Of a stretch of 64,000 nucleotides of DNA, positions 2,099 to 58,525 are shown piece by piece (position 1 is the first letter of the stretch; each line of letters starts with the position of its first letter). Below the pieces are notes generated by a model, which was not told the DNA's origin, ran no database searches, and was given only the letters and a program-made list of their open reading frames with translations. This stretch comes from a virus. Lineage: Duplodnaviria > Heunggongvirae > Uroviricota > Caudoviricetes. Made by a program: the position numbers and the translations under genes. The stretch lies in IMG/VR virus record IMGVR_UViG_3300001336_000003, positions 1 to 64,000 of that record. The stretch is one strand, 5' to 3'.

Positions 2099-3442
2099 AT
2101 GACTCTATCAAATGATCAGTTAATTAAAAAGTGGGGACCACTTTTGGAGCACGGCAATTTTGCTCCAATCGAAAATAACCACAAGAAAGCTGTAACGGCT
2201 ACGATTCTGGAAAACACAGAAATCGCACTCCGTGAAGGCACAACAATGTCACCAAATTCCCTTCTAATGGAAACATCGACCAACGCTGTTGGTCAATGGG
2301 GTGCAGCACCTGGACTTTCTTCTGGTGCAGACGCAGCAGGCCCTGTCGCGGGTTATGACCCTGTTCTAATCAGCTTGGTCCGTCGCGCAATGCCAAACTT
2401 GATTGCATACGATATTGCTGGCGTCCAGCCAATGACTGGTCCTACTGGCCTTATCTTCGCTATGCGTTCAAAGTTTAACAAGATGGCTGGCAACACTTCT
2501 TCGGAAGCTTTCTATCTTGAAGCAGACAGCGCATTCTCTGGTGCTGGTGCACAAACAACTGAGTTGTTCCCTGCATCTGCAAACACAGATGTTGACTTCG
2601 GAACAGGTATGGCAACAGGCGTAGCAGAAACACTTGGAACCACAGGTAACGAATTTGGTGAAATGGCATTCTCGATTGAGAAAGTTGCCGTGGAAGCAAA
2701 AAGCCGCGCATTGAAAGCAGAATACACCACTGAACTTGCACAAGACCTTCGTGCTGTTCATGGTCTTGACGCTGAAACAGAACTTGCTAACATTCTTTCT
2801 AGCGAGATTCTTGTTGAAATCAACCGCGAAGTTATCCGCACAATCTATGCAACTTCTGTCGTAGGTGCTGAAGCAACTGCTGCAAGAGGCGTATTCGACC
2901 TTGATGTTGACGCAAACGGTCGTTGGTCTGTTGAAAAGTTCAAGGGCTTGATGTTCCAAATCGAACAAGAAGCTAACGCAATCGCAAAAGCGACCCGTAG
3001 AGGGAAGGGTAACATCGTTATCTGTTCTTCGGACGTAGCTTCCGCATTGCAAATGGCTGGTGTTCTTGACTACACCCCTGCACTTAACAGCAATAACCTT
3101 CAAGTTGATGACACTGGCAACACTTTTGCTGGTATCCTTAACGGACGCTTCCGCGTTTACATTGACCCATATGCAACAAACAACTACCTAGTTGTTGGTT
3201 ACAAAGGTTCTAGTGCATTTGACGCTGGTTTGTTCTATTGCCCATACGTTCCGCTACAAATGGTCCGTGCAATCGGTGAGAACACCTTCCAGCCAAAAAT
3301 CGGGTTCAAGACACGCTACGGCATGGTCGCAAACCCATTCGCACAAGGTGCAAACGCATTTGCTGGTCCAAACAACCCAAGTGGTCTTACAGCAAATACA
3401 AACGTCTACTACCGTAAGATGCGCGTTAAGAACCTTATGTAA
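2099..3442 (+). CDS. 23: major capsid protein gp23
   Basis: Blocks shared with T4 gp23: VRRAMPNLIAYDIAGVQPM; EAKSRALKAEYTTELAQDLRAVHGLDAE; FKGLMFQIEQEA; GRFRVYIDPYA..YLVVGYKG; FQPKIGFKTRYG. Start moved to MTLSND (2099) by RBS and T4 alignment; ORF track start 2069. Confidence 0.95.
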   Translation: MTLSNDQLIKKWGPLLEHGNFAPIENNHKKAVTATILENTEIALREGTTMSPNSLLMETSTNAVGQWGAAPGLSSGADAAGPVAGYDPVLISLVRRAMPNLIAYDIAGVQPMTGPTGLIFAMRSKFNKMAGNTSSEAFYLEADSAFSGAGAQTTELFPASANTDVDFGTGMATGVAETLGTTGNEFGEMAFSIEKVAVEAKSRALKAEYTTELAQDLRAVHGLDAETELANILSSEILVEINREVIRTIYATSVVGAEATAARGVFDLDVDANGRWSVEKFKGLMFQIEQEANAIAKATRRGKGNIVICSSDVASALQMAGVLDYTPALNSNNLQVDDTGNTFAGILNGRFRVYIDPYATNNYLVVGYKGSSAFDAGLFYCPYVPLQMVRAIGENTFQPKIGFKTRYGMVANPFAQGANAFAGPNNPSGLTANTNVYYRKMRVKNLM

Positions 3443-3480
3443 TTTTTACATAAAAGAATCTGGAAACAACCAGATCGAAC

Positions 3481-3515
3481 TAAAGGCGGGGAAATTTCCC
3501 CGCCTTTTTTATTGT
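3481..3515. terminator. bidirectional rho-independent terminator (GGCGGGGAAATTTCCCCGCC + T-run) between convergent gp23 and endonuclease gene
   Basis: perfect 8-bp GC stem followed by TTTTTTATT on plus strand. Confidence 0.75.
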
Positions 3516-4888
3516 TCCCATATAAATTTTGCGTTGCCACAATCCCATATTCTATCCCAATTATCATCCATCATATTTTCATATTCTGTCTTTAATGGAT
3601 CGTAATTTTCCAATATATCACACAATTTGTGCTTTTGAAACTTCACACGAGAAAATAGCGTAGTGGTATTTTTCTTCCAATACCAGTAATTTGGTTCTGT
3701 CATGCCCACATAGTTAAAACCGCACTTCAAGTATACATTACCATCGCCAAATCTAAGATCAGAAAACGTCACTATACTTTCAGGACGCACTTCTTTTATG
3801 AAGTGATTTATTAATTTTGATACGCCACCTACAACTGTGTATTCACTATGTGAAGTTATCCTTGAACACTCATATTCGTATTTTTTGCTAAAACGGTTTT
3901 TTCCAAAAGAAGCTACCATAAGTAAATCACCACCATTAAAAAGACCATAGTGATGGCTCGCACCAACTGATGAATGTAGATGGTGTTCTTTATGAAACTG
4001 CATAGCTAATCTAGAATCTATTTTAGCTATTTGAGTTTTTCTTGCCCCTATTTTTTTGGTGCTACCTACCAACTTTGAAACTAGATACTTTACTTTTTCC
4101 ATGTCATCTGATTCGAAAACTGTTATTAGTCTATACCCCTTTTCTTTACATTTCAAGTATTTTTGTTTGTGGTAATTTTTTTTCTTTCCGCTTGATGTTT
4201 CTGAATGCCAATATAAACCACAATATTCAATAGCGATTTTCTTGTCTAAGTTAACTATATCCAATTCAAATGGGGCTATTATAGATCTGTCGCACCCTAT
4301 CCACGTGTCGTTTGGAAATTTACCCTTCAAATAATCATAAAGGTCTATTTCTGCTTTGCTACGCCAAGGTGGATTGATAGGTTCTATTTTTATATCATTT
4401 GACAAAAGTTGATTTCTTATATGTGTTTTGGACACGTTAAGCTTTTCGGCTAATGTGATAATAGATTTTGTTCTGTCATATTCTTTGTCAAGAAATTCTT
4501 TAGTGAAATGTATGTCTTGATGTTGCTTTTGCTTCCCCAATTTGGTAGACTCTGAAAGACTTCTAACTTCTATGTTACATTCTTCTATCCATTCGTATAT
4601 AGTAGCTTGGCTCACGCTGAAATATGCAGATAGCGATTCAATTGTAGATTCAGAATATAGCTGTTCGAGTTGTTTTTTATCAGGTTTTATTCTTTTTTTG
4701 TGTCTGGAATTTGCTTCCGTGGAAGCCTGTTTATGACTTTTTCTTTTTATGCTATGGTCTATAAGCCATTTTCTTACGGTTGGGTTAGAAGTATCGTATA
4801 GATTCGCCAAAGAAGAGATTGTCATCCCTTCTTTGGCATAGATACTTTCTAATTCGGATTTTGGTGGTATTGGTATTTTTTTACTCAT
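3509..4888 (-). CDS. free-standing homing-endonuclease-like protein: N-terminal repeated HTH modules + Vsr/DUF559-like PD-(D/E)XK nuclease core (IAIEYCGLYWHSE)
   Basis: 459 aa; three HTH-like segments (ISSLANLYDTSNPTVRKWL, IESLSAYFSVSQATIYEWI, ITLAEKLNVSKTHIRNQL); motif DIVNLDKKIAIEYCGLYWH similar to DFYLPDFNIAVEVNGTFWH of ORF 62430..63227; sits where T4 has segD after gene 23. Confidence 0.55.
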   Translation of the reverse strand: MSKKIPIPPKSELESIYAKEGMTISSLANLYDTSNPTVRKWLIDHSIKRKSHKQASTEANSRHKKRIKPDKKQLEQLYSESTIESLSAYFSVSQATIYEWIEECNIEVRSLSESTKLGKQKQHQDIHFTKEFLDKEYDRTKSIITLAEKLNVSKTHIRNQLLSNDIKIEPINPPWRSKAEIDLYDYLKGKFPNDTWIGCDRSIIAPFELDIVNLDKKIAIEYCGLYWHSETSSGKKKNYHKQKYLKCKEKGYRLITVFESDDMEKVKYLVSKLVGSTKKIGARKTQIAKIDSRLAMQFHKEHHLHSSVGASHHYGLFNGGDLLMVASFGKNRFSKKYEYECSRITSHSEYTVVGGVSKLINHFIKEVRPESIVTFSDLRFGDGNVYLKCGFNYVGMTEPNYWYWKKNTTTLFSRVKFQKHKLCDILENYDPLKTEYENMMDDNWDRIWDCGNAKFIWEQ

Positions 4889-8256: not shown

Positions 8257-8795
8257 TAATATTTACTCCTTTGAACAAAATCTACTAAGTTATTTAGACC
8301 GAGTGTCTGTAACCAATGCAATTCTTGAGTATAGTCTTTATTTGTAGTCTGTTCAATCATCAACATATCATCAAAGTATTTTATGTTAAACTGTAGCGTA
8401 TTTGTCACTACTTCTATAGAAGGCGTATTCCAAAGAAAAACTGTTGATTCAGAATCAAAATTTTCAGCTTCTTGGGGTAATAATCTTTCTTCTATCTTGT
8501 CTTGGAAGTCATTTTCGAATCTTACAAAATCGTAGTATTCGTTAGGAAATGTGTTATTATTTGGGTTGCGTTCTATCCTTACACTGTTTGGTGATATGAC
8601 TTCAACGGTGTAAGGTGAAGGGACCGTAGATGCACTTACTTCAACTACGGTCCCTTCTGATACTGAAAAAGTTACAGTAAATCCGAAATCGACATTACCC
8701 CATATATTTGGAAACATGGTTTCTGGATCTTCAAAACCGATCCCAACTTCTGTAAAATTTGTCGTATTGGATATACTGTAACTTACTTGATTCAT
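8256..8795 (-). CDS. hypothetical protein (possibly virion-associated, adjacent to 5.4)
   Basis: ORF; context only. Confidence 0.35.
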   Translation of the reverse strand: MNQVSYSISNTTNFTEVGIGFEDPETMFPNIWGNVDFGFTVTFSVSEGTVVEVSASTVPSPYTVEVISPNSVRIERNPNNNTFPNEYYDFVRFENDFQDKIEERLLPQEAENFDSESTVFLWNTPSIEVVTNTLQFNIKYFDDMLMIEQTTNKDYTQELHWLQTLGLNNLVDFVQRSKY

Positions 8796-9514
8796 GCGTG
8801 GTCAACACCTTTACTTCTACAATTATCATTGTGCCATCTTGATATAGCATTTGGTTTGGCCTCTAAGCCACAATAAATGCATTTTTGCTTTGATATTTTA
8901 CTATGCGACTCTTTCATTTTAATTATAGTATCTTCGTTGTGTTTTTTGCCCCTAAAGTTTTTCCCCATGTCTAAATGTGCGTATTTACCATTTTTATGAT
9001 TATCTCTATATTTTTGTCGTGTTTCCTCTGATTGTTTATGACCAGTCTTAATTCTTCTTAATTTTTCTTTGGTTTCTTCTGTATGATTTTTACCGTAGAA
9101 TGGGTTATTTTCGCCCATCATCTTTTCACGAATTTTTTCTTTAGATTCTTCTGTGTGGTTGCCTTTTTTTGCCATAGGGTTGTTTTTCCCCTTAAATTTT
9201 TCTGACATGATTTTTTTACGTTCTTCTCTATTACTAGGATTGAGTTCACCGCTTGCAAAACCACAAGAATTGTTATTGAAATTCATACAATTTTCTTCTT
9301 CGATGTTCATGTTGATATATTTTTCTTCTAACTCTTTTAAGTGCTCTAAAGAATCTGCAAACTCTAATATCGTTTTAACTAATACGCTCTTGTCTTTTAT
9401 AGACCTAACCCATTTTCCAGACCCATAATATAAGTCATTCGGGTCATTGGTAGAATGGCGTCCTATATAGTATTTGCCATTTGGGTGCTCTGTCTTGTAA
9501 ATTATATGAAACAT
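8792..9514 (-). CDS. free-standing homing endonuclease-like: GIY-YIG-like N-domain + NUMOD3 repeats + C-terminal Cys finger
   Basis: HIIYKTEHPNGKYYIGRHSTNDP..YYGSGKW; repeated NUMOD3-like GKNHTEETKEKLR units; C-terminal CIYCG....WHNDNCRSKG shared with other copies; TATAAATA (minus, 9545..9552) upstream. Confidence 0.6.
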   Translation of the reverse strand: MFHIIYKTEHPNGKYYIGRHSTNDPNDLYYGSGKWVRSIKDKSVLVKTILEFADSLEHLKELEEKYINMNIEEENCMNFNNNSCGFASGELNPSNREERKKIMSEKFKGKNNPMAKKGNHTEESKEKIREKMMGENNPFYGKNHTEETKEKLRRIKTGHKQSEETRQKYRDNHKNGKYAHLDMGKNFRGKKHNEDTIIKMKESHSKISKQKCIYCGLEAKPNAISRWHNDNCRSKGVDHA

Positions 9515-10480: not shown

Positions 10481-10555
10481 TATAAATATAGTTGTTAGTC
10501 GCGGTGCTGGAACACCCACTAACTCTATGTTGATTAAAAAAGGAGCAACACAGCT
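10481..10555 (+). promoter_or_regulatory. homing-endonuclease cassette leader: late promoter TATAAATA + GTCGCGG box + hairpin + CCCACTAACTCTA + AAAGGAG RBS
   Basis: conserved at 7 loci (see findings). Confidence 0.65.
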
Positions 10556-11389
10556 ATGACTATTTATCTTTACATCAAAAAACACAAAATAACAGGTTTA
10601 AAATATCTGGGTATAACTTCACAAGAAGACCCTCACAAATATACTGGTTCGGGTAAAAGATGGTTAAGACATCTTAAAAAACATGGATACGAATATACGA
10701 CTGATATTCTACTCGCCACAGAAAACAAAAAAGACATTGAAAGAACTGGGTTATTTTTTTCTATGTTGTGGAACATAGTAAAAAGCAGTGATTGGGCAAA
10801 TTTGACGGAAGAACGCGGGAATGGTGGTGACATGGGGTTTTCGGGTCTGGCGTCCACCAGAGAAAAAATGAGTAATTCGCACAAGAAAAAAGTAAAAGAA
10901 GGGACACATCATCTTTTATGTGGCGACATACAAAAACAATCAAATAAAAAAAGAATTGATGAGGGGACGCATAATTTATTAGGTAATAATAACCCATCGC
11001 ATAAAAGAGTTGCAGATGGAACACATCACTTTTTGGATATAAGCTGGCAAAAGAGTGTAGCAAAAAGTAGAACTCAGAAAGCTATAGATAACGGAAACCA
11101 CTATTTTTCATCAGATTTAGGAAAAGAAAATTTGAAAGCTTATCAACAAAAAAGAGTTGTTGAAGGAAGTCATAATTTTTTAGGTGAAAAAAATCCATCA
11201 CATGATAGAATAAAGAATAAAACACATAATTTTCTAGGCTCAATTTCATGTAGAGATAAGACAGGCAATTGCGTTCAAATTTCAAAAGATATATACTATC
11301 GTCAAACAGGCCCAATGGAAGATTGGGAATATGTTGTAGTTCGTTCCAAAGAAGGCAAAAAAAGAAAAGAACTTCTTACCAAGTGTTGA
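10556..11389 (+). CDS. free-standing homing endonuclease-like (IY-YLG / YxGSG N-domain, NUMOD-like GTHHxLG repeats)
   Basis: MTIYLYIKKHKITGLKYLGITSQEDPHKYTGSGKRWLRHLKKHGYEY; paralog of 41596..42237 and fragment 21700..21903; repeats EGTHHLL/EGTHNLL/DGTHHFL/EGSHNFL/NKTHNFLG. Confidence 0.6.
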   Translation: MTIYLYIKKHKITGLKYLGITSQEDPHKYTGSGKRWLRHLKKHGYEYTTDILLATENKKDIERTGLFFSMLWNIVKSSDWANLTEERGNGGDMGFSGLASTREKMSNSHKKKVKEGTHHLLCGDIQKQSNKKRIDEGTHNLLGNNNPSHKRVADGTHHFLDISWQKSVAKSRTQKAIDNGNHYFSSDLGKENLKAYQQKRVVEGSHNFLGEKNPSHDRIKNKTHNFLGSISCRDKTGNCVQISKDIYYRQTGPMEDWEYVVVRSKEGKKRKELLTKC

Positions 11390-21623: not shown

Positions 21624-21699
21624 TATAAATAAAAGTGTCGTTCACGGATTTCGTGGTGGTTATCCCAACGACTCTAAAAACAGCAAAGGAGTTTCCAGC
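21624..21699 (+). promoter_or_regulatory. homing-endonuclease cassette leader (TATAAATA ... GTTCACGG hairpin ATCCCAACGACTCTA ... AAAGGAGTTTCCAGC)
   Basis: same architecture as 10481, 23746, 34340, 41569, 46140, 53248. Confidence 0.6.
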
Positions 21700-21903
21700 A
21701 TGGATTATTTATATACGCATATAGAACATACACGACTTTATATAAAACAGTGCTCACACTGTGATTTGAAATATTTTGGCAAATCAGTCAGAAGAGACAT
21801 AGAAGATTATGAAGGTTCAGGTATTAAATGGAAGAATCATCTTAAAAAACATGAAGCAAACATCCAAATAAACAGAAATGGGTGTGTCAAGAGACAGGCT
21901 TAG
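21700..21903 (+). pseudogene. 5' fragment of a homing-endonuclease gene (67 codons of the YxGSG-type N-domain) with intact cassette leader
   Basis: MDYLYTHIEHTRLYIKQ..DYEGSGIKWKNHLKKHE parallels 10556 and 41596 N-termini but stops after 67 aa. Confidence 0.5.
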
Positions 21904-22854: not shown

Positions 22855-23136
22855 TTAAGCATTTTCATCTCTCGCTTCACTCACATAGAATACGGGTTCG
22901 TAGTCTACTTCGAAGCTATAATACGATACTTTTCCCGATTCGTCAATAGCAATAATACGGTCAGAAGAATTTTTCATCCATTCCCATCCGTCACAATTGC
23001 TATAAAGATGATCGCAATATTCTTTTAATTCGTAGTCCAACCAATCTGGTTCGCATACAATTTCCCAATCTGGTTCGAAATCATCGACATAATCACTTTC
23101 AAGACATACTTTATACTTCATTCCATATCCATCCAC
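22855..23136 (-). CDS. acidic hypothetical protein
   Basis: ORF track. Confidence 0.35.
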   Translation of the reverse strand: MDGYGMKYKVCLESDYVDDFEPDWEIVCEPDWLDYELKEYCDHLYSNCDGWEWMKNSSDRIIAIDESGKVSYYSFEVDYEPVFYVSEARDENA

Positions 23137-23678
23137 TTCACAAGTTCTTCATACTTTTCAGTTTTAGTCACGCTTTTAGCAATATGATCCAGAACCAAAG
23201 GACGCAAATCTTTACCGTCAAGAACAGAAAAGATGAAACGCGCATCTTGCTTATGAATCAAGTTAGGCACAAATTTAATAGCAACTTCTTTCTTGTCACC
23301 ACCATGCAGGGTTTTTGCAAGCAAAACCAAACCTTCAAGACGACCCAAGACATTATCCAAAGCAACTTTGAAACGGGTTTCATAGTCTTTTACAGTCTTG
23401 ACATCTTCTTCATCCAGAATAGGAATCAAATCATCCATTTCTTCGTTTACGATAATGTTAAGAATATGACGTTCAGTGCGAATCGCATCTTTCACCTTAT
23501 GTATCATCACGTATTGATCTGCTTTAATTTTAATTTTGTGTCCATCTGAAAAACTTATAATAAATCCTTCCGCGCCTTTAAGACTGCGTGTGTAATCAAT
23601 TAATATATTTACATTATCAAATGGTTCTATTACATCAACCACAGGAATGCGAAATTCTTTTATTTTTTCTAGTAGCAT
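23118..23678 (-). CDS. rnlA: RNA ligase 1 (RnlA) C-terminal half, separately translated
   Basis: EGFIISFSDGHKIKIKADQYVMIHK matches T4 Rnl1 [25 protein letters not shown]; own RBS tggagatgacctATG. Confidence 0.75.
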   Translation of the reverse strand: MLLEKIKEFRIPVVDVIEPFDNVNILIDYTRSLKGAEGFIISFSDGHKIKIKADQYVMIHKVKDAIRTERHILNIIVNEEMDDLIPILDEEDVKTVKDYETRFKVALDNVLGRLEGLVLLAKTLHGGDKKEVAIKFVPNLIHKQDARFIFSVLDGKDLRPLVLDHIAKSVTKTEKYEELVKWMDME

Positions 23679-23745
23679 AGGTCATCTCCATTTTCATTTG
23701 AGTTCATAATATACTAATTTTATGGGAATGTCAATTGCTATTTCG

Positions 23746-23820
23746 TATAAATAGTAACGTAGTTCACGGGATATGTGAGAGTCTCCCCAACTACTCTATA
23801 ACAACAAAGGAGTTACAGCT
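23746..23820 (+). promoter_or_regulatory. homing-endonuclease cassette leader
   Basis: TATAAATA, GTTCACGG, hairpin, CCCCAACTACTCTA, AAAGGAGTTACAGCT ATG. Confidence 0.6.
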
Positions 23821-24822
23821 ATGACTATTTATCAACCTTACTTTTATATAATTCAAGAAATATCTACTGGAATGTATTATGCTGGTGCGAAATGGGCGAA
23901 AGACGCAAATCCTAATGATTTTTTAACCCCAAATGGTTATCACACCTCTTCAAAATTAGTTAAATATCTAATCGAAAAAAACGGATTGCAATCATTTAAG
24001 ATTCGAAAAATAAAAACTTTTGCAAATATGTATGATACATATGAATATGAAACAAAATTTCTAAAAAAAGTAAACGCCAAAAGTAATTCTTGTTTCTTAA
24101 ATGGGCATGAAAATAATTGGGGTGTGACGGACAATACGAACATGGTTTCAGTAAAAAACAAAAGTGGTGAAAATTTTAAAGTTAGAGTAGATGACCCCAG
24201 ATACAGATCGGGAGAATTTTTCCACAACACCAAAGGAAAAGTTGTGGTAAAGGATGAAAATGGAAATACGTTTCAAATATGTGTTGATGATCCTAGATTC
24301 ATCACAAAAGAATTGCAACACGTTTCAAAAGGGACGACTGTCGCTTTGGATACCGTTACGGGCAAAGTTAAAAGAGTTTCCACAGATGATTTCAACCAAA
24401 CAAAAAATTTAGTCGGTATTTGTAACGGTTTCGTTCCTGTAATGGATACTTACGGGAACAAGTTCTCGGTTAATAGGGGTGACGTAAGATTTGAAACGGG
24501 TGAAATAAAGCATGTTACAAAAGGTAGGGTTACTGTAAAATCTACAGATGGTAAAACTATGAGTATATATACCACTGATCCGAGATATACATCTGGTGAA
24601 TTGGTTCACAATACTACTGGAATGGTAAGTGTGAAGGATAAACATGGCAATACAATGCAAGTTAGTAAAAAAGACCCAAGATACATTTCAGGCGAATTAG
24701 TCGGGGTTTCAAAAGGCATAAAAAGAACACCTCAAATAACAAAATGCCCGCATTGCAGCAAGAGCGGCGCTATGTCTCAAATGAAAAGATGGCATTTCGA
24801 AAATTGTAAGATGTTGCGGTAA
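23821..24822 (+). CDS. homing endonuclease-like protein with tandem about 22-aa repeats and C-terminal Cys finger, inserted inside rnlA
   Basis: IYQPYFYIIQEISTGMYYAGAKWA N-domain (paralog of 53328); 7-8 repeats of VxVKDxxGNTxxVxxDDPRYxSGELVH; C-terminal CPHCSKSGAMSQMKRWHFENCK. Confidence 0.6.
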   Translation: MTIYQPYFYIIQEISTGMYYAGAKWAKDANPNDFLTPNGYHTSSKLVKYLIEKNGLQSFKIRKIKTFANMYDTYEYETKFLKKVNAKSNSCFLNGHENNWGVTDNTNMVSVKNKSGENFKVRVDDPRYRSGEFFHNTKGKVVVKDENGNTFQICVDDPRFITKELQHVSKGTTVALDTVTGKVKRVSTDDFNQTKNLVGICNGFVPVMDTYGNKFSVNRGDVRFETGEIKHVTKGRVTVKSTDGKTMSIYTTDPRYTSGELVHNTTGMVSVKDKHGNTMQVSKKDPRYISGELVGVSKGIKRTPQITKCPHCSKSGAMSQMKRWHFENCKMLR

Positions 24823-24823
24823 A

Positions 24824-25414
24824 TTACCGCAACATCAAATACTTTCCAGTGATATTATGCCTAACCGAAAGAAGTGTCAATTGTTCCTCTTTATATGTAA
24901 TTACGATTTTGTTGTTTGGGCTGGTCCACTCGAAAATGGGGGTTAGTTGTTCACGTATACACCAAGCAGCAAAGTCCTTATATCTGGTATTTTTTTCAAT
25001 AAATTCTTCTGCTTGCATTGCCACTTCTGTGATGCCCATCTTAGTCATCCAACGAATTTCGCCATTGACCTTCATAGGATGTAGCATCGAACCATCTCGT
25101 TTTTCTTCTATAAAATGTGGTTTGGTCATGTCAATATTACGGATCAACGTTTCTTCTTTTTCATTGACATTAAACCATTTATGAAAGGGTCGTGCTGCAA
25201 TTTCGCCATTTGGTGAAAATTTTATGCCACGACATTCTCTTTTTATTGCGCCCTTGGTATCATCTGGTCCGCTCATATCAAATGTATCACTTGTTGCTAC
25301 CACATAATTGACAACAAAACCAAAGTCACGCTCTGCAATGATAAATTCATCACGACCAGCAATAGCAGGGCGCACATCATCAATGTGACGAATTTCGGGA
25401 AATTTGTATTTCAT
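24824..25414 (-). CDS. rnlA: RNA ligase 1 (RnlA) N-terminal half with KxDG adenylation motif
   Basis: [26 protein letters not shown] vs T4 [38 protein letters not shown] vs [40 protein letters not shown] vs [33 protein letters not shown]. Confidence 0.8.
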   Translation of the reverse strand: [196 protein letters not shown]

Positions 25415-25415
25415 T

Positions 25416-25772
25416 TTAGTTCTCCAAAATCACAAGACCAGCTTCATACAATTCTTTTGCCCGAAGCAGCTTTTCTTTGTTGCGAACAGCATCCCAATAC
25501 TGGACAGGGAAACCTTTTTTGTGGGATTCACGCTTTACAATTTCTTCATCAGCTTTGGAAAGTTCTTCTTCCCAATCATTGATATACTGCGTTTCTACAG
25601 TAGGACCAACATAACCTTTAGCTTTATATTCTACAGTAACAGGGTGTTCTTTCATCAACCGACTAAGATATTCAGGATAGTGTGTCCGAGGCTCATAACG
25701 CATTTCAAAAAACACGGAACCTTTATCACTGTTGATTGCGTCTTTTTCCATCTTGAAAACGAAAACAGTCAT
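25416..25772 (-). CDS. hypothetical protein
   Basis: ORF track. Confidence 0.35.
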   Translation of the reverse strand: MTVFVFKMEKDAINSDKGSVFFEMRYEPRTHYPEYLSRLMKEHPVTVEYKAKGYVGPTVETQYINDWEEELSKADEEIVKRESHKKGFPVQYWDAVRNKEKLLRAKELYEAGLVILEN

Positions 25773-31321: not shown

Positions 31322-32551
31322 TCACTCCGTTATTTCTTTTTCTAGTTTCATTTTTGTGACTTGGATTTCATCCGACGATACTTGTTTGATGTCACTAGAA
31401 TCGAATGAAACAAAGAACATTTTAGAATTTTTAGTTGATTTCATACGATTTTCAGCGGCTTTTTTGGTCTTGAAAACGTATAGATAAGGTGTTTTTTCCC
31501 AAACAGTTTCCTCATCTAGACTATATATAACCCCATTCTTAGGTGAAATTGGCGGCACGAGTTTGCCTTCACTATCGACACTAACAACTTTGTAGCCATG
31601 TAGACGGGTATTTGATATACATTCAAAGTGTTCTGGCATACCAAATTTTTCTACCATGGCAGTGTTAAATGTTCCGCCAAGGAAAGAACCATCATGAATA
31701 AAATATGAATATTTTGCAGAAGTTGAATTCCAAGAAGAACCACTAAGGGAAACTTCAAGATACTTGATTTTTTCACCATTGTTATAGAACGCTACAATGT
31801 CTTCTGGTGGAATATCATGGTAATTTTCTTCACTTATGCTCAAATATTGGTCAAAATCAAACACCAAATCGCTAAGCAATTCAATTGCATTTTCAAACGT
31901 AAATTCCATGTCTTTGCGTTGAAGTTCGATTTCACGACCATAAGAACCACCGATCTGTGCTTCCAGTTCTTCCCAAGAATTAGGCATACCAGTTTTGGCA
32001 ATAGTCAATGCAAGCTTTGTGCTTTCGGGCTTGCTGATAAAGAAACCCTTTTTGGCATACTTGTGAACACGCAAAAGACTATTCAAAGGATAGCGTGTCT
32101 TGTGGTTGAACCTCAATGTCTTTGTGGCAATGTCTGGATAAAAATCAGGATGAAAATTGTATGACTTGGTGTCACAATCAAACGCGCCCATGCACACCGA
32201 AAAGTCAAAATTGTCGTAGATCTTTTCTGGAGTGTCAAAATAGTCATATGTCATGACTTGAATGATAGCACGTTCTTCTTTGTCATTCTTTACGTCATTG
32301 CTTTTGTATGTGATAGCCCTATCAGAAATGTTGACAACAAAACAGTTGCTATCATGAAGCGTGTGAATCACATCTTCAAAGCCTTTTGCACTTTTTGGGT
32401 AAATATCATAATCGTTGATATCTGTTTTTGTTGCTAAAGACAGTATTACACCGCCTGCAATATAACAACCTGTAAGACCAAACGGATCAGGATTTTTTGG
32501 AAGTCTACTCATGCCATTTCCTTTCAATGAATCATAATATAAAGGGCGCAC
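31322..32551 (-). CDS. hypothetical protein, possible nucleotidyltransferase fold
   Basis: GCYIAGGVILS..DINDYDIY loosely resembles GS..D.D NTase motif; weak. Confidence 0.25.
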   Translation of the reverse strand: MRPLYYDSLKGNGMSRLPKNPDPFGLTGCYIAGGVILSLATKTDINDYDIYPKSAKGFEDVIHTLHDSNCFVVNISDRAITYKSNDVKNDKEERAIIQVMTYDYFDTPEKIYDNFDFSVCMGAFDCDTKSYNFHPDFYPDIATKTLRFNHKTRYPLNSLLRVHKYAKKGFFISKPESTKLALTIAKTGMPNSWEELEAQIGGSYGREIELQRKDMEFTFENAIELLSDLVFDFDQYLSISEENYHDIPPEDIVAFYNNGEKIKYLEVSLSGSSWNSTSAKYSYFIHDGSFLGGTFNTAMVEKFGMPEHFECISNTRLHGYKVVSVDSEGKLVPPISPKNGVIYSLDEETVWEKTPYLYVFKTKKAAENRMKSTKNSKMFFVSFDSSDIKQVSSDEIQVTKMKLEKEITE

Positions 32552-34339: not shown

Positions 34340-34417
34340 TATAAATATGTTAGTCGCGGTACTACCAATACCCACTAACTCTAGAACCTGTCAACCTTAA
34401 AGAAGGAGTTCCAGCAC
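34340..34417 (+). promoter_or_regulatory. homing-endonuclease cassette leader
   Basis: TATAAATATGTTAGTCGCGGTACTACCAATACCCACTAACTCTAG...AAGGAGTTCCAGCAC ATG. Confidence 0.65.
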
Positions 34418-35263
34418 ATGGATATTTATTCCATATTGGCTTCAAAGCCTCACAATACGCACTACTTAAATAGATATATTAGATTTATTAAGCAATGTCA
34501 ACATAAAAACGTCAATCATAATGGATATGCCGAAAAGCATCATATTTGTCCCAAAGCCAAAGATATGTTTCCCGAATACGCATCTTTTAAAAAGAACAAG
34601 TGGAACCTTTCACTACTTACGCCAAGGCAACATTTCATAGCTCATATACTACTGTGGAAATCATATCCAAATATAGCCAGTATGACATATGCTGCTCATT
34701 CCATGCGAAATTATCAAGACACCAAAGTAAATAGCAGATTATACGAAAATTTGAAGATAGAATTTATAAAAACGCAGTCTACTAGGACTCACAAACAACA
34801 TCTAAACATGTCTATCGAAGAAAAGAATAAAATATCCGATAAAATTTCCACAAATTCTAAAAATTTAGTTCAGGCAAAAACCAAAGAAGGGTTGACTGTA
34901 AGGATAGCAAAAACAGAATTTGATAATAGTGTAAACTATGTTGGTCACACCAAAGGAATGACCACTGTGAAAGATGCTGATGGAAGGTTTCATTTTGTTT
35001 CTGTAGACGATCACAGAATAAAGTCTGGCGAACTTGTTGGACCCAATACTGGAAAAACTTTTAGTGAAGAAGTTAGAAAAAAGTTAAGAAAAGTCAGAAA
35101 GGGAAGAAAACATACAGAAAAAGCAAAGATGAAAATGAGAAAGCCTAAAGGACAACAGAAAAAATTAATATGCCCTTATTGTGGAAAGTGTGGTGGCGCA
35201 TCAAACATCAAAAGATACCACTATGAAAATTGCAAAAATGCAATTGTTGAACAGTTATCATGA
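34418..35263 (+). CDS. HNH homing endonuclease-like protein with the cassette-shared repeat unit and C-terminal Cys finger
   Basis: HNH core EKHHICPK....LTPRQHFIAH; one copy of VKDADGRFHFVSVDDHRIKSGELVG repeat; C-terminal CPYCGKCGGASNIKRYHYENCK. Confidence 0.7.
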   Translation: MDIYSILASKPHNTHYLNRYIRFIKQCQHKNVNHNGYAEKHHICPKAKDMFPEYASFKKNKWNLSLLTPRQHFIAHILLWKSYPNIASMTYAAHSMRNYQDTKVNSRLYENLKIEFIKTQSTRTHKQHLNMSIEEKNKISDKISTNSKNLVQAKTKEGLTVRIAKTEFDNSVNYVGHTKGMTTVKDADGRFHFVSVDDHRIKSGELVGPNTGKTFSEEVRKKLRKVRKGRKHTEKAKMKMRKPKGQQKKLICPYCGKCGGASNIKRYHYENCKNAIVEQLS

Positions 35264-41568: not shown

Positions 41569-41595
41569 TATAAATAAGTATGGTTCGCGGATTTC
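41569..41595 (+). promoter_or_regulatory. homing-endonuclease cassette leader (TATAAATA..GGTTCGCGG hairpin ATCCCAACCATTCTAG..AAAGGAGTTCCAGC; extends into remnant ORF)
   Basis: same motif order as other cassettes. Confidence 0.6.
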
Positions 41596-42237
41596 TTGGC
41601 AGGCATCCCAACCATTCTAGAAACACAAAGGAGTTCCAGCATGCATTATTTATATGTAAAAACACATAATAAAACGGGTTTAAAATATTTAGGAAAGACA
41701 AAATCTAAAGATCCATTTAAATATAGGGGTTCAGGAAAATACTGGAAACGGCATATTAATAAGCACGGTTATGATGTCACAACTCAAATATTACTTGTTA
41801 CTGAAAACAAAGAAGAATTAAAGCAAACTGGCCTATTCTTTAGTAAATTATGGAATATAGTAAAATCACGAGAATGGGCAAATTTGAAATTGGAAAATGG
41901 CGATGGGGGTTGGGATCATATAATATTAAAGGGTAGAACTTTTTCAGATGAAACTAAAAGAAAAATGTCAATATCTGCTATCGTAAGACAAACTGGTGAA
42001 ACAAATTCATTTTACGGAAAAACACATTCTGATGAAACTAGAAAATTGATTGGAGAACATAGTAAAGAAAGAGGTAAAGAGCAATATACAAAAAGAATAA
42101 ATAATGGCACTCATCCTAACAACAAAAGTGTATGCCCTCATTGCAATAAAATTGGACAATATAGAGCAATGAAAAGATGGCATTTTGATAATTGTAAATT
42201 ACTTAACTCTTTGGTTGTCTTCCATCAGGCCACTTAA
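41596..42237 (+). CDS. free-standing homing endonuclease-like (YxGSG-type N-domain, NUMOD3-like units, C-terminal Cys finger)
   Basis: MHYLYVKTHNKTGLKYLGKTKSKDPFKYRGSGKYWKRHINKHGYD close paralog of 10556; GKTHSDETRKLI unit; CPHCNKIGQYRAMKRWHFDNCK. Confidence 0.65.
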   Translation: MAGIPTILETQRSSSMHYLYVKTHNKTGLKYLGKTKSKDPFKYRGSGKYWKRHINKHGYDVTTQILLVTENKEELKQTGLFFSKLWNIVKSREWANLKLENGDGGWDHIILKGRTFSDETKRKMSISAIVRQTGETNSFYGKTHSDETRKLIGEHSKERGKEQYTKRINNGTHPNNKSVCPHCNKIGQYRAMKRWHFDNCKLLNSLVVFHQAT

Positions 42238-46139: not shown

Positions 46140-46212
46140 TATAAATATAAGTGCCAGTCGCGGTTGCCGCCAAGAAACCCACTGACTCTATGTTTAGTAA
46201 CCCAAAGAGAGG
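46140..46212 (+). promoter_or_regulatory. homing-endonuclease cassette leader
   Basis: TATAAATATAAGTGCCAGTCGCGGTTGCCGCCAAGAAACCCACTGACTCTATG...GAGGAACACAGCAC ATG. Confidence 0.65.
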
Positions 46213-47089
46213 AACACAGCACATGTATATTTATCTGATACGCAATATCATCAATGACAAGATTTATATTGGTCAAACTACAAAAACACCCGAAAAAAGA
46301 TTTAGGCAGCATGTATACACAAGTAAAAGACTAAAGACACAACTATATAACTCTATGAACAAATACGGCGAAGAAAATTTCATAGTAGAAGTTCTGGAAG
46401 TTGTTCAGGACAAGAGCCTTCTAGACCCAAGGGAAATATATTGGATAGCGGAACTGGAGCCAGAGTATAACATGACTATAGGTGGCCAAAGAAGTAGTAC
46501 CACAGAAAAATACACGGAAGAGCGTAAACGCGAAAGATCGGCAAAAAGTTCCGCTTCCATAAAAAAGATGTGGGATTCCATGAGTGAAGATGAACGCAAA
46601 GAACGCATGAAAAAAACCCACGCAAAAACAGATTACAAATCACATTCTGATAAACTTTCGGTTTCTAGAAGAAGATTTTTTACGAATGAAACTGAAGAGC
46701 AGAAAGCAATTAGAATAGAAAAAGCTAAAATAGGTGCCAAGAAAACAGAAAAAATCAAATGTCATTATTGTGATCAGGAAATTGGTGGTGGTAAATATAA
46801 TCTAGTAAAACACGAAGAAGTATGCTCAAAAAATCCATCATCAAAAAATTTTGGGAAAAGCACAAAAAAGAAACAACCTTATAGCTATACAATACTAGAT
46901 CCAAACAATACAAAGCATATAACATCATCATTTAAGGGATTTTGCAAAACACACAATCTTTCAAGATATTTGCTTATGAAAAATATTGGAAGTGTAGTTG
47001 AAAGCGTTGACGCTAAAACTAATAACGCCAACGCAACAACAATAAATACCTTTGGGTGGTGTTTACTTAGGATTGATGATCTGACTTAG
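46151..47089 (+). CDS. GIY-YIG homing endonuclease with NUMOD3-like repeats and C-terminal Cys finger
   Basis: YIYLIRNIINDKIYIGQT..RFRQH..LYNSMNKYG..NFIVEVLE..REIYWIAELEPEYN is the canonical GIY-YIG domain; TEERKRERSAKSS/ERKERMKKTHAKT units; CHYCDQEIGGGKYNLVKHEEVC. Confidence 0.85.
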   Translation: MPVAVAAKKPTDSMFSNPKRGTQHMYIYLIRNIINDKIYIGQTTKTPEKRFRQHVYTSKRLKTQLYNSMNKYGEENFIVEVLEVVQDKSLLDPREIYWIAELEPEYNMTIGGQRSSTTEKYTEERKRERSAKSSASIKKMWDSMSEDERKERMKKTHAKTDYKSHSDKLSVSRRRFFTNETEEQKAIRIEKAKIGAKKTEKIKCHYCDQEIGGGKYNLVKHEEVCSKNPSSKNFGKSTKKKQPYSYTILDPNNTKHITSSFKGFCKTHNLSRYLLMKNIGSVVESVDAKTNNANATTINTFGWCLLRIDDLT

Positions 47090-53247: not shown

Positions 53248-53327
53248 TATAAATAATAATATAGGTCGCGGAGTACCAGTCCCACCTATTCTACGTTTAT
53301 AGCTTTAGAAAGAAAGGAACGCAGCTT
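53248..53327 (+). promoter_or_regulatory. homing-endonuclease cassette leader
   Basis: TATAAATAATAATATAGGTCGCGGAGTACCAGTCCCACCTATTCTACG...AAAGGAACGCAGCTT ATG. Confidence 0.6.
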
Positions 53328-54371
53328 ATGGCTATTTATTCACCATACACATATCTTATCGGATGGTCAAGACTTAATACGTGGTATTATGGCGTAAGAT
53401 ATGCAAGAAAAAGTCAATGTCTTTATGAAAGTGGTTGTCATCCAGACGAACTTTGGGTCACTTATTTCACATCTTCGAAACATGTTAAAGATTTCAGGGA
53501 AAAACATGGCGAGCCAGATGTTATACAAGTCAGGAAAACTTTTCCATCAGACTCCTCAAAATCACAAGAAGACGAAAAAGAACTTGCACGAAGCGCTCTT
53601 CTTTGGGAAGAAAAAATTCTTATTCGTGTAGGTGCTATACATAAGGATATGTGGATCAACAAGAGCATCGCAGGTCATTTCAGGACCACAGAGAGTAACC
53701 CCAATCCACTAAAGGGTAAAACATACGAAGAAGTATATGGAGTTGAAAAATCAGAAGAGTGGAAACACGCGACGAGTATCGCCAGCCAAAAATTTTGGAA
53801 TTCAGATGCAGGTAAAGAAAGAAAAAAATACCTATCTGAAAATATAAGTGAAAACTTTACCACTCTTGGCATAGAACCAGTGTGTAAAATTAAAGATACT
53901 TTTATTCATGTATGTGAGATATGTGGCGAGTTTAATAAAAGAAGAAAAACAGCAGGTGAGTTGAAAAAGAAAACTTGCGGTAGCAAATCGTGTGCAATAA
54001 AATGGTTCTATAAATACAATCCAGAAGCAGCAAAATCTAAAATGCCTCCAACAAAGTTCACTACTATAGGCCACGAACCAGTAAATAAAATCACCGATAC
54101 ATTTCTATGGAAGTGCGTTGTGTGCGGGGTTTCATGCGTAAAGCGTGATACAATAAAAAATAGAAACAAGATAACATGTGGCAAATCTTGTGCAGCAACT
54201 TACAACAACCGAAAAAGAGTAGAAAACGGATATACAAAACAAGGTTCAACGTATAAACACAAAGGTAAAAAGTTTTTAATAACCAATGGTTATGAAACAG
54301 CATTGTTAGAAAAAGGCGACCAGATTCCACAAGGATGGGAATCTGGTCGCCATTGGAAACCAAAAGGTTAG
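53328..54371 (+). CDS. free-standing homing endonuclease-like protein (IY-YLIG N-domain, two Zn-ribbon repeats)
   Basis: MAIYSPYTYLIGWSRLNTWYYGVRYA paralog of 23821 N-domain; repeats IEPVCKIKDTFIHVCEICG / HEPVNKITDTFLWKCVVCG each followed by CGxxCA. Confidence 0.6.
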   Translation: MAIYSPYTYLIGWSRLNTWYYGVRYARKSQCLYESGCHPDELWVTYFTSSKHVKDFREKHGEPDVIQVRKTFPSDSSKSQEDEKELARSALLWEEKILIRVGAIHKDMWINKSIAGHFRTTESNPNPLKGKTYEEVYGVEKSEEWKHATSIASQKFWNSDAGKERKKYLSENISENFTTLGIEPVCKIKDTFIHVCEICGEFNKRRKTAGELKKKTCGSKSCAIKWFYKYNPEAAKSKMPPTKFTTIGHEPVNKITDTFLWKCVVCGVSCVKRDTIKNRNKITCGKSCAATYNNRKRVENGYTKQGSTYKHKGKKFLITNGYETALLEKGDQIPQGWESGRHWKPKG

Positions 54372-56857: not shown

Positions 56858-58525
56858 CTAAACTGCCATAGGTGCTTTAATTGTTGGGTGGCACTGATAA
56901 TTTTTAAGTGTAAACATATTTACCGTATTAAAATTGAATCCGTATGTCAAACCTTTAGACAAAACAAAGTCTTCTGATATTTCTAATGTTGGTAGAGGAT
57001 ATTCTTTTCTCGTAAGTTGTTCCCGAACCTGTTCAATATGATTATTATATATGTGTGCATCACCTATGGAATATACGAGTTCACCAACTTGCATATTAAC
57101 TTCTCTAGCCAAAATATGAATAAGAAGTGCATATGAAGCAATGTTGAAAGGCGCACCCAAAAATGCGTCATTTGATCTCATTGTTAACATCCCGCTTAAT
57201 TTGTTCTCTCTGACAATAAGTTGAAAGAAACAGTGGCATGGTGGTAGTGCTTGCATATCTATAACCGTAGGATTCCATGCTGACAATATGATTCTTCTTG
57301 ATTCGGGTTCGTTTTTTATTTGGTTTATTATATTTACGATTTGGTCGGCCACCACCTTTTTACGAAATACATGTCCATTAGAAGCTTGAATATATTTTAG
57401 ACTATACCCATTATAACTTTCACCTGTGTCTAACAAATAAGAAATCCTCGCCAGTGTCAAATCATCTATGCTATTGCATATGTCTGTTTTATACAGATAG
57501 TCTTTGTATGTATCATAGTGGAAAACTCTTATTTTTCTATGATGGTCTACTTGTTTATTGGCTATTGCCAAGTTCATCTTTTTTGGTAGAAATATGCAAG
57601 TGTGTTTAGAATAGATGTCAGAGCAATAGTAATCTTTATCCAATTCGTAGTCATTATTCATCTTAACCCATTCATAAAATCCTGGGATTTTATCTATGTC
57701 TAGTAAAAAATTCTTAAAATCCATCCAACTATCAGAAACACGAACACCCCTAGCCCCATAATTTCTATAACTTAGATGTTTTTTATTATAGCATCTATCT
57801 ATCATATGAATCCATAGTTTATATGCTTTCTTATAGTAAGATGGTTTATCACCTCTGAATGAATTGTTTGCCACCCCCTTAATCAAAGGGTTGAGGCAAA
57901 TCTTCTTAGGTATATTACTTCCTAAAATTTTAGTCAATTCACCCGTATCTAGTGCTTGCGCTATGTAAGTTTTTCGATATTTGTCGTTGCTGCACAGACC
58001 TAATATTTTAATGGGTCTACCAGATTTAGATGTAAATCTATAGCCCGTATATTTGTGTCCATCGCCGTAGTCTGCAAATTCAATAACTTCTTTAGCCGTA
58101 TCTATCGTTTCTTTGCGTTCTGGAACTTCTGTAATTTGTTCGCTGGCAGAATACCAATTTCTCCACATACTGCCATACACAGGACCAAGAAGCCCTATAG
58201 ATTCGATAGAATCATACCCTAAATTTTTTCCTTGGTGTATTAGATTATCTGTCCATATCGTTTGTTTACCTACCAATTCCTCACGGGGTTTGCCATATGT
58301 CAATTCAGCAAGTCGTCTTTCATCTGTGCCGCCTTCAAGAAACCATAACAATTCACCCACAACAGATTTCCATGCGAGTTTCTTTGTGGTGACGGCTGGA
58401 AACCCATCGTTCAAATCAAATCGCATCTGATAACCAAAAACAGAACGTGTTCCAACACCAGTTCTATCTTCAACATCAACACCATTTTCCAAGACGTGTC
58501 TAATCAAATCATGATATTGTTGCAT
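56858..58525 (-). CDS. td: thymidylate synthase ThyA carrying an in-frame about 265-aa insertion that contains an HNH-endonuclease motif
   Basis: N-terminus DRTGVGTRSVFGYQMRFDL..FPAVTTKK..LLWFL..LGPVYGSMWRNW and C-terminus SRRIILSAWNP..ALPPCH.FFQ..RSNDAFLGAPFNIASYALL..GDAHIY match ThyA; middle has KLWIHMIDRCYNKKHLSYRNYGARGVRVSDSWMDFKNF (phage HNH family). Confidence 0.85.
   Translation of the reverse strand: MQQYHDLIRHVLENGVDVEDRTGVGTRSVFGYQMRFDLNDGFPAVTTKKLAWKSVVGELLWFLEGGTDERRLAELTYGKPREELVGKQTIWTDNLIHQGKNLGYDSIESIGLLGPVYGSMWRNWYSASEQITEVPERKETIDTAKEVIEFADYGDGHKYTGYRFTSKSGRPIKILGLCSNDKYRKTYIAQALDTGELTKILGSNIPKKICLNPLIKGVANNSFRGDKPSYYKKAYKLWIHMIDRCYNKKHLSYRNYGARGVRVSDSWMDFKNFLLDIDKIPGFYEWVKMNNDYELDKDYYCSDIYSKHTCIFLPKKMNLAIANKQVDHHRKIRVFHYDTYKDYLYKTDICNSIDDLTLARISYLLDTGESYNGYSLKYIQASNGHVFRKKVVADQIVNIINQIKNEPESRRIILSAWNPTVIDMQALPPCHCFFQLIVRENKLSGMLTMRSNDAFLGAPFNIASYALLIHILAREVNMQVGELVYSIGDAHIYNNHIEQVREQLTRKEYPLPTLEISEDFVLSKGLTYGFNFNTVNMFTLKNYQCHPTIKAPMAV

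Follow-up and report, generated by a model that had tools for sequence, protein, structure and literature searches.

Conserved enzyme genes that are divided into pieces are known from several T4-like phages. In Aeh1, the ribonucleotide reductase gene nrdA carries a free-standing homing endonuclease gene (nrdA-a/mobE/nrdA-b); it is split in a functionally critical region, its two separately translated polypeptides have to reassemble, and a late promoter and 5' hairpin precede mobE (Friedrich et al. 2007 PNAS; Crona et al. 2011, PMC3045599; PMC2988022). T4 39/mobA/60 is another close genes-in-pieces system. According to the account of Petrov et al. 2006 given in PMC2988022, gene 43 is divided at the same point in Aeromonas phages 25 (43A/seg43/43B) and 44RR (43A/IC-UTS/43B), with a seg-type endonuclease in the first and none in the second. 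In the 'fractured genes' of marine metagenomes, found in environmental T4-like phage DNA (gp41, IMPDH, DnaE, NrdA and NrdJ), a free-standing GIY-YIG (or Vsr-like) endonuclease likewise lies between the halves, and split inteins join these up again (Dassa et al. 2009, PMC2677866). The subject here is rnlA, the gene of a T4 Rnl1-type RNA ligase (Pfam PF09511 + PF20819), in a 64,000-nucleotide stretch of DNA from an uncultured T4-like phage (IMG/VR record IMGVR_UViG_3300001336_000003, positions 1 to 64,000; referred to below as the window). In this window rnlA is broken into an upstream half, rnlA-N, and a downstream half, rnlA-C, separated by an insert that carries an endonuclease gene on the opposite strand (Table 1).

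On comparative grounds, the locus probably encodes a functional two-piece Rnl1 with an antisense GIY-YIG homing cassette, the halves reassembling after translation and the split spreading by homing into intact rnlA genes.

Table 1. Positions of the features of the split rnlA locus and of the leader copies in the window (aa, amino acids; ORF, open reading frame; SD, Shine-Dalgarno motif).
Feature	Position	Strand	Description
rnlA-N	24824..25414	(-)	196 aa; N-terminal part of a T4 Rnl1-type RNA ligase
rnlA-C	23118..23678	(-)	186 aa; completes the nucleotidyltransferase domain and adds the helical Rnl1 C-terminal domain
Insert between the halves	23679..24823		1,145 bp; carries a 333-aa ORF antisense to rnlA
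Free-standing homing endonuclease gene	23821..24822	(+)	333 aa
Endonuclease leader	23746..23823	(+)	late promoter TATAAATA (23746-23753), hairpin, SD GGAG (23809-12), ATG
Convergent stop hairpin	24810..24836	both	perfect 13-bp inverted repeat GATGTTGCGGTAA-T-TTACCGCAACATC
SD of rnlA-C	23686..23689	(-)	GGAG, 7 nt before the ATG at 23678
Sigma-70-like promoter upstream of rnlA-C	23706..23734	(-)	TTGACA-17-TATTAT, 11/12 matches
Replaced (putatively co-converted) tract	23484..25274		insert + ~450 bp of rnlA-N + ~195 bp of rnlA-C; zero DNA similarity to L007
Seven leader copies	10482-10557, 21625-21702, 23747-23822, 34341-34418, 41570-41643, 46141-46223, 53249-53328	(+)	found with the covariance model

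The two halves together span one RNA ligase

An earlier, sequence-only reading of the window had described two ligase halves, with KxDG, EGF and KIKIK motifs, that each align to T4 Rnl1, and both ORFs are present where it placed them. rnlA-N matches Pfam RNA_lig_T4_1 (2.7e-24) and positions 50-193 of the 377-position profile PHROG 562 (1e-39), and rnlA-C matches Pfam T4_Rnl1_C (3e-7) and positions 199-370 of the same PHROG profile (1e-23). Combined, the two halves cover the PHROG 562 profile once, from end to end, with zero overlap. Identity of the split ligase to T4 Rnl1 is only ~25%; residues 52-191 of the T4 protein (PDB 2C5U) align with rnlA-N and residues 218-321 with rnlA-C. Motif I of rnlA-N (KRDG, residues 105-108; K105-R-D107-G108) aligns with T4 K99-E-D-G, and the same half holds R62, K79, F81 and the motif III residue E162. 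Motif IV (EGF at residues 37-39; E37-G38) and motif V (KIKIK at 48-52; K50, K52) are found in rnlA-C. Every residue that is invariant in 41 Rnl1 sequences is kept (R62, K79, F81, K105, D107, G108 and E162 in the first piece, and E233, G234, K246 and K248 in the second, in joined numbering). The T4 Rnl1 equivalents are presumably R54, K75, F77, K99, D101, G102, E159, E227, G228, K240 and K242, in the numbering of the Shuman-lab mutagenesis.

With the joined halves as the query, the top 120 matches are all uninterrupted proteins (371-396 aa, 98-100% query coverage, identity up to 64%). Alignment to such homologues had been suggested by the sequence-only reading as a way to define the insertion point; the intact proteins run colinearly through the junction and place the break at the equivalent of T4 Rnl1 residue ~192-197, T4 Rnl1 being a single 374-aa chain. 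A junction-spanning query is matched as one contiguous piece in 1604/1607 deposited phage genomes, so that sequenced isolates do not include the split form. A full-text literature search for a split rnlA returned no report, most subscription journals being outside its coverage. The same arrangement is present in four independent metagenome assemblies from different samples (DNA identity 98.5-100%), and an assembly artefact was ruled out by their agreement.

The two ORFs could in principle be decaying remnants of an rnlA gene inactivated by insertion, its function having been lost or being supplied by another ligase; the sequence-only reading had named such pseudogenes as the finding that would overturn it. 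A 1.1-kb cassette inside a catalytic domain would normally destroy the function of a gene, T4 can dispense with rnlA in the laboratory, and the DNA examined covers only 64 kb of the genome. Against decay, both halves are open, each behind an SD motif, with all the catalytic residues in place. Furthermore, ~100 diverged split alleles, down to ~50% identity, retain both ORFs, and the ratio of nonsynonymous to synonymous substitution rates (dN/dS) between split alleles, where computable, is 0.07-0.40 for both halves, with dS saturated. No further rnlA-like sequence is found within the 64-kb window. Decay is largely refuted by this conservation and is very improbable; by these measures, both fragments appear to be kept as translatable ORFs under purifying selection.

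Break point and predicted fold

The catalytic domain is interrupted between motifs III and IV. One polypeptide carries motifs I and III and the other motifs IV and V, so that the active site would have to be rebuilt from two chains. An AlphaFold (AF2) model of the joined N+C sequence has a mean confidence (pLDDT) of 92.9, and its best structural match is T4 Rnl1 2C5U (E = 1.8e-19; top PDB entries 2C5U, 5TT6 and 9DO4, E 1e-18 to 1e-19, ~385 columns). The residues on either side of the break (196/197) fall between the strand 178-186 and the helix 195-205, in the lowest-confidence block of the model, and the same region varies in length among intact homologues. The break sits at a surface loop of the nucleotidyltransferase domain. 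The model puts strands of both pieces into one beta-sheet. From this shared sheet and the conservation of both halves, we infer that the two polypeptides would reassociate into an Rnl1 active site.

A slight chance is left to the reading that only one half keeps a role, in tail-fibre attachment or RNA binding, while the other is retained through linked signals. In T4, gp63 both joins RNA and attaches tail fibres, and these activities are separable; the halves in the window have separate expression signals, as would suit such a division. However, catalytic residues are conserved throughout the split clade in the one half as in the other, the two halves are always found together and adjacent in the classified split loci (see below), and the predicted fold needs strands from both pieces in its sheet.

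Expression signals and the stop hairpin

The ATG of rnlA-N at 25414 is directly behind the stop of an upstream ORF at 25416, and the two are translationally linked. The sequence-only reading had credited the downstream half with its own ribosome-binding site, and had described the 1.1-kb insert as a late-promoter endonuclease cassette on the other strand; both descriptions hold (Table 1). The TTGACA-17-TATTAT site upstream of rnlA-C is the best promoter-like match in 23000..25600, and would give rnlA-C a transcript of its own.

A duplicated LML at the junction had also been reported. The LMLR* tail of rnlA-N (asterisk, stop codon) does exist, but it is encoded by one arm of the 13-bp inverted repeat at 24810..24836, the other arm of which encodes the ...KMLR* tail of the endonuclease, both proteins ending in MLR*. 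It is thus a convergent stop hairpin, rather than a simple target-site duplication, that accounts for the tail. The repeat folds with a free energy (dG) of -22.6 kcal/mol (z = -4.67; 0/200 shuffles as good), and is probably a bidirectional terminator or an RNA-end structure. A related cassette in another split rnlA (locus L205, 65% identical) has a different palindrome at the corresponding spot, AAACTGCG-CTAA-CGCAGTTT, and its two ORFs both end in KLR*. This difference argues that the stop hairpin is itself selected.

At one further split locus (L022), the ATG of the C-half is 11 nt within the end of the N-half, in another frame (CTTGATGTTACTTGA, L022 4581-4591), and the tail of the N-half in the window (TTGATGTTGCGGTAA, 24824-24838) shares TTGATGTT with it. 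The 'duplicated ML' may be a relic of an overlap junction of this kind, or it may be due to chance.

The endonuclease in the gap

In the endonuclease, an N-terminal GIY-YIG (SegE/I-TevI-like) domain (aa 1-~100) is followed by six DPRYxSGEL beta-hairpin repeats and, at the C-terminus, by a CxxC...H...C finger. Y9, Y20-x-G22, E77 and N94 are invariant among 40 relatives, with I-TevI-like spacing, and are taken to be the equivalents of I-TevI Y6, Y17, G19, E75 and N90. The position of the catalytic Arg after YIG is K, R or H across the alignment of 40 relatives, with no invariant Arg. SegE_GIY-YIG is matched by 8/40 relatives (best 6e-10) and GIY-YIG by 6/40. The best PDB match of the family profile is the I-TevI catalytic domain over its full length (1LN0 residues 5-92, E = 0.1), and the top three fold matches of the AF2 model (pLDDT 90.9) are I-TevI as well (1LN0/1MK0; template modelling (TM) score 0.55-0.59, probability 0.89-0.95, E ~0.3). 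With moderate confidence, the window protein can thus be considered a GIY-YIG (Seg-like) enzyme. Direct Pfam matches to Cupin_3 and Lyase_8_C (and to Myosin_N in relatives) were rejected as spurious, being caused by the repeated DPRYxSGEL beta-hairpins.

The closest relative of the endonuclease (65% identity) occupies the same site in the split rnlA of L205. More distant relatives are found at other loci, again antisense, beside a topoisomerase II gene (L206) and among unknown genes (L129).

Distribution of split alleles and contents of the gap

When the central part of the protein served as the query, N-halves of 193-212 aa, with 50-74% identity and broken at the same point, were recovered in ~95 clusters (at 90% identity), along with 12 clusters of C-halves of 185-197 aa. 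The state of the gap was classified in 97 fetched loci, and 15/77 classifiable IMG/VR loci are split at this point. All C-halves of the split clade start with M-x-L-x-K-I-x-E-F/Y-x-I-P, behind an SD-like motif at a similar distance. In a neighbour-joining (NJ) tree of the break region, which has no bootstrap support values and in which recombination is likely, all split alleles fall in one clade, with the intact genes of L008 and L009 nested among them.

The gap is variously filled. The SegE-like enzyme type of the window is shared with L205. HNH + HTH enzymes with 54-85% mutual identity are found in L011, L018, L019 and L021, a different GIY-YIG in L024 (and a 102-aa remnant of it in L017), a GIY-YIG + NUMOD3 protein in L059, and a LEM-3-like GIY-YIG in L094. 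Every endonuclease ORF found in the gap is antisense to rnlA. In L026/27 and L034/36 the gap has no clear ORF. It is empty in L014-16 and L025, where only a stop, 4 nt and an ATG are left, in L095 (22 nt), and in L022, where the halves overlap out of frame by 11 nt (ATGTTACTTGA). The L014 junction reads AAGGAGTAGATCCATG, with the SD AAGGAG formed by the last two codons of the N-half.

These states match those expected of a homing cycle, with apparent invasion, decay, loss and re-invasion, but here loss leaves the gene split. Comparison of the alleles shows a split state that is old and stable and that outlasts decay or loss of the endonuclease, and a gap that has been re-occupied by unrelated endonucleases. 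The attribution of the split to the endonuclease cassette in the sequence-only reading thus agrees with the evidence for the lineage of this phage, where split and cassette appear to have arrived together by conversion of an intact gene, but only there; elsewhere the endonuclease need not have created the split, as split alleles exist with unrelated endonucleases or with none. The likeness it drew to split nrdA and gene 39/43, with rnlA as the affected gene, is a valid analogy that has to be refined, since the window is not unique and a whole clade of uncultured T4-like phages has the split.

The empty alleles also bear on whether the interruption could be removed, by a group I or group II intron, a split intein or ribosomal bypass, to give a single ligase polypeptide. 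Group I introns with endonuclease genes do occur in T4-like phages, and gene 60 uses translational bypass. Split inteins, in addition, rejoin the 'fractured genes' (PMC2677866). However, an Rfam scan found no family at gathering score in the window and no intron match even at E <= 1 in 23400..25100, and the endonuclease is antisense. The N-half ends 3-5 residues past conserved Rnl1 sequence and the C-half starts on homologous residues, where intein halves of ~100 + 35 aa do not fit; an intein or split intein was ruled out, as there is no extra sequence at the break. In the empty alleles of L014-16 and L025, moreover, there is next to nothing to remove. Removal of the interruption is accordingly scarcely credible.

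The intact rnlA genes of L008 (6001-7149, 382 aa) and L009 (6001-7158, 385 aa) have a longer linker at the break (YMKTSDSVLLQKIQEF in L008, YLNIHEETQDYYILEMISRY in L009). The L009 linker looks as if the tail of an N-half had been joined in frame, through a spacer, to the start of a C-half. These genes may be re-fusions or may be the ancestral unsplit form.

In L011, genes for a HAD/Pnkp-type phosphatase, a KTI12/AAA_33 kinase-like protein and an RlaP nucleotidyltransferase are found directly upstream of rnlA-N (376-2736), a hint that the split ligase sits in a cluster of RNA-repair genes.

Probable conversion of an intact gene

In an ENA contig (L007) that is syntenic with the window, rnlA is intact and encodes 374 aa. 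The window regions 27200-25274 and 23484-22687 are 92-95% identical to L007 in DNA (blastn), and the 1.8-kb tract that lies between them, centred on the endonuclease and bounded on both sides inside rnlA, has been replaced (Table 1). In sliding comparisons of the protein, residues 1-30 and 261-382 are 90-100% identical to the L007 product (P0003-like), and residues 41-240 are split-clade-like, with 15-55% identity to L007. Other N-halves are also chimeric: P0167 is 100% identical to its intact-type partner P0004 up to ~aa 58, and near-identity is seen between P0173 and P0003 up to ~aa 45 and between P0187 and P0034 up to ~aa 125. Repair of double-strand breaks with co-conversion of flanks is established for T4 SegF and SegG. 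The rnlA of the window appears to be a chimera with the footprint expected of endonuclease-initiated repair of this type.

L007 has an extra ORF of 119 aa directly after rnlA (3400-3759), which is absent from the window.

The order of events in the clade can also be read the other way, with the split coming first, as a tolerated frameshift or nonsense mutation, the endonucleases being later colonists of the gap, and the mosaic in the window resulting from ordinary homologous recombination. The empty alleles do resemble simple mutational splits (the L014 junction and the out-of-frame overlap in L022), and a gap that readily accepts insertions would more easily account for the at least four unrelated endonuclease families that occupy it. 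The same ambiguity is recorded for gene 43 of Aeromonas phages 25 and 44RR (PMC2988022). On the other hand, the tract replaced in the window has the cassette at its centre and both its ends within rnlA, a geometry that recurs in several independent chimeras. An origin of this kind is rather unlikely; it concerns how the clade arose, and is compatible with the gene now being a functional two-piece ligase.

Proposed mechanism and points against it

Under the favoured reading of a functional two-piece ligase spread by homing, the upstream piece would end at a stop codon within the convergent hairpin, and rnlA-C would be expressed from its own sigma-70-like promoter, SD and ATG. For the endonuclease, late expression would start at its own TATAAATA promoter and run through the structured leader. 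The two polypeptides would reassociate non-covalently, the N-half contributing the adenylylated lysine and the C-half the motif IV and V residues and the C-terminal domain. In a mixed infection, the endonuclease would cut intact rnlA alleles near the break site, and repair off cassette-bearing genomes would copy the endonuclease together with flanking split-type ligase sequence, turning an intact gene into a split one. The window phage would be a convertant of an L007-like ancestor.

Several points weigh against this reading. The direction of change within the clade is ambiguous, given the nesting of intact L008 and L009 among split alleles in the unbootstrapped tree. The true donor of the converted tract is absent from databases, the nearest N-halves being only 72-74% identical, and ordinary recombination between co-infecting phages could yield a similar mosaic. 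The promoter of rnlA-C is a consensus match only, and such matches are no commoner in the region than in shuffles. The direct Pfam match of the window endonuclease to SegE_GIY-YIG (E = 0.23) is below the cut-off, and its membership of the GIY-YIG group is transitive and structural, with PDB and fold E values of 0.1-0.4. Finally, the window shows only 64 kb of the genome, and an intact rnlA may lie elsewhere.

A bolder proposal, which must be regarded as tentative and is somewhat doubtful at present, is that the break in rnlA is a permanent, reusable docking site. At least four unrelated endonuclease families would have settled one after another in a single ancient split allele, swapping ORFs behind a shared structured late leader, and the two-subunit state would itself be mobile by co-conversion. 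If true, single-chain ligases would be turned into heterodimeric ones, with an active site from two polypeptides, across populations of uncultured T4-like phages. More speculatively, separate promoters might let the phage time or gate ligase activity, or part the ligase from the tail-fibre attachment role.

A structured late leader

The leader of the endonuclease contains a hairpin with an outer stem (GTAGTT 23759-64 / AACTAC 23789-94) and an inner stem (GGGA 23768-71 / TCCC 23784-87). Read on the rnlA strand, the hairpin complement leads into a T-rich run, as in a terminator. The starts of the endonuclease and of rnlA-C are separated by ~141 nt, which are conserved among split alleles with unrelated endonucleases. 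In the sense of the endonuclease, the consensus is TATAAATA, N4-6, a 6-bp outer stem, CRC, a 4-bp inner stem with its loop, C, TCTAKA, an SD, and ATG-nnn-ATT-TAT.

Across 32 copies of the leader, 98.1% of cells pair, and double-sided changes are seen in 6/10 pairs (42 cells); 0/500 shuffles are as good, and slid controls give 24-55%. The stability of the hairpin in the single sequence is not significant (z = -0.31), so that its support comes from covariation only. An IMG/VR scan with 15-mers gave 107 matches for the leader, 65 of which belong to a tRNA-gene family or are due to chance, and only the 42 with the full element were used.

A covariance model scores the window leader at 72.8 bits and finds seven copies in the window (Table 1), all on the plus strand and each before an endonuclease-like ORF starting M-x-I/Y-Y/L. 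These ORFs are antisense within minus-strand early gene clusters. The outer stems of the leader copies differ by compensatory changes (GTAGTT/AACTAC, GTCGTT/AACGAC, GTTAGT/ACTAAC, ATGGTT/AACCAT and ATAGGT/ACCTAT). True late structural genes (229, 1070 and 2069) have TATAAATA and no hairpin. No Rfam family was found for the leader. A late promoter and conserved complementary motifs have been reported upstream of the free-standing endonucleases of 'fractured genes' (Dassa et al. 2009, PMC2677866), and the leader is therefore treated as known in kind.

Behind one full leader copy is a 67-aa ORF (21700-21903, plus strand) that is a deletion remnant of a longer endonuclease-like gene. The longer gene (at least 143 aa, ended by the contig edge) persists in an otherwise 99%-identical assembly (L003/L006 1-432), and the two sequences realign from window position 21854.

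The phage and other features of the window

The window encodes gp21/22/23-type head genes, Dda helicase, DNA ligase, ribonucleotide reductase and td. Its capsid protein is only 64% identical to that of the nearest isolates (Sinorhizobium phiM12-like phages and Methylophilales phage Melnitz), and the ligase protein only 40-50% identical to that of the closest isolates. A search of deposited phages for near-identical DNA found none, and no tRNAs were found in the window.

Endonuclease-type genes or remnants number at least nine in the 64 kb, the plus-strand set being joined by two more homing endonuclease genes on the minus strand that have no structured leader (3509-4888 and 8792-9514). One of this pair, encoding a 459-aa HNH/HTH protein, is immediately after the major capsid gene and antisense to it, a place reminiscent of that of T4 segD between genes 23 and 24.

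The thymidylate synthase ORF (56858-58525, minus strand, 555 aa) has its Pfam domain in two stretches, separated by an in-frame HNH-endonuclease-like segment (PHROG, aa ~158-396) that looks like an intein or endonuclease insertion. A DNA methyltransferase ORF (61047-63326, minus strand, 759 aa) has methylase profile matches at aa 3-36 and then from ~318, and the ~280 aa of in-frame sequence not explained by these matches is possibly another intein or insertion. A 409-aa product (31322-32551, minus strand; L001 1-81) has a precomputed Pfam match to Gad2 (PF26128, an anti-Gabija family) on an assembly that is 98.5% identical; a Pfam scan of the window ORF at E <= 0.001 gave nothing, and the match is thus unconfirmed.

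Comparison with known systems

The split state of rnlA is of interest beyond this locus. Two adjacent ORFs of ~190 aa annotated as 'RNA ligase' should be taken as a warning that they may be one functional unit. The natural break point hints at a position at which an Rnl1-type ligase can be divided, a useful lead for split-enzyme tools. With ~100 diverged alleles in every state of the homing cycle (occupied, degenerate, empty, re-invaded and chimeric), the clade also allows study of how a selfish endonuclease permanently remodels a host gene. The enzyme would be the first natural covalent nucleotidyltransferase (RNA ligase) with its catalytic domain divided between two polypeptides. T4 Rnl1 (gp63, rnlA; 2C5U, 5TT6 and 9DO4) has the same family, fold and essential residues, and is one chain in T4 where it is broken here.

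The features of Aeh1 nrdA and mobE outlined at the start all recur at the rnlA locus, where reassembly of the polypeptides is predicted. The two differ in the host gene, ribonucleotide reductase in Aeh1 and RNA ligase 1 here, and in the endonuclease, which is HNH in Aeh1 and here GIY-YIG and antisense to the host gene. The rnlA locus has, moreover, a promoter-like site for the downstream half, and its split is common to a large clade in which the gap may be empty or hold endonucleases of several families. That the split enzyme works is proven for Aeh1, whereas for rnlA it is only predicted. The 'fractured genes' of Dassa et al. 2009 (PMC2677866) share with rnlA their environmental T4-like source, the endonuclease between the halves, TATAAATA with a conserved hairpin leader, and forms that have lost the endonuclease. 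However, rnlA has no intein sequence and is not among their hosts, and in their figure the 3' end of the endonuclease overlaps the downstream gene, whereas here the endonuclease is on the opposite strand.

Among the free-standing endonucleases of T4, SegF and SegG are GIY-YIG enzymes that cut the allele without the endonuclease and are inherited with flanking markers (PMC2988022), which is the behaviour proposed here. segD is an antisense seg gene between oppositely oriented genes with no promoter of its own (PMC2988022), in contrast to the consensus late promoter of the window cassette. The T4 seg genes lie between genes and split none, whereas this cassette splits rnlA. Gene 43 resembles rnlA in that it is ambiguous whether the endonuclease made the split, and, in the account given in PMC2988022, in having a hairpin upstream of the ribosome-binding site that does not sequester that site. 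The host gene is a different one, and for rnlA the alleles are far more numerous, their endonucleases belong to several families, and chimeras give direct evidence of transfer into intact genes. As far as sequence can tell, the split rnlA has all the testable defining features of intein-less genes-in-pieces, and would be the fourth host gene of this kind in T4-like phages, after nrdA, 39/60 and 43.

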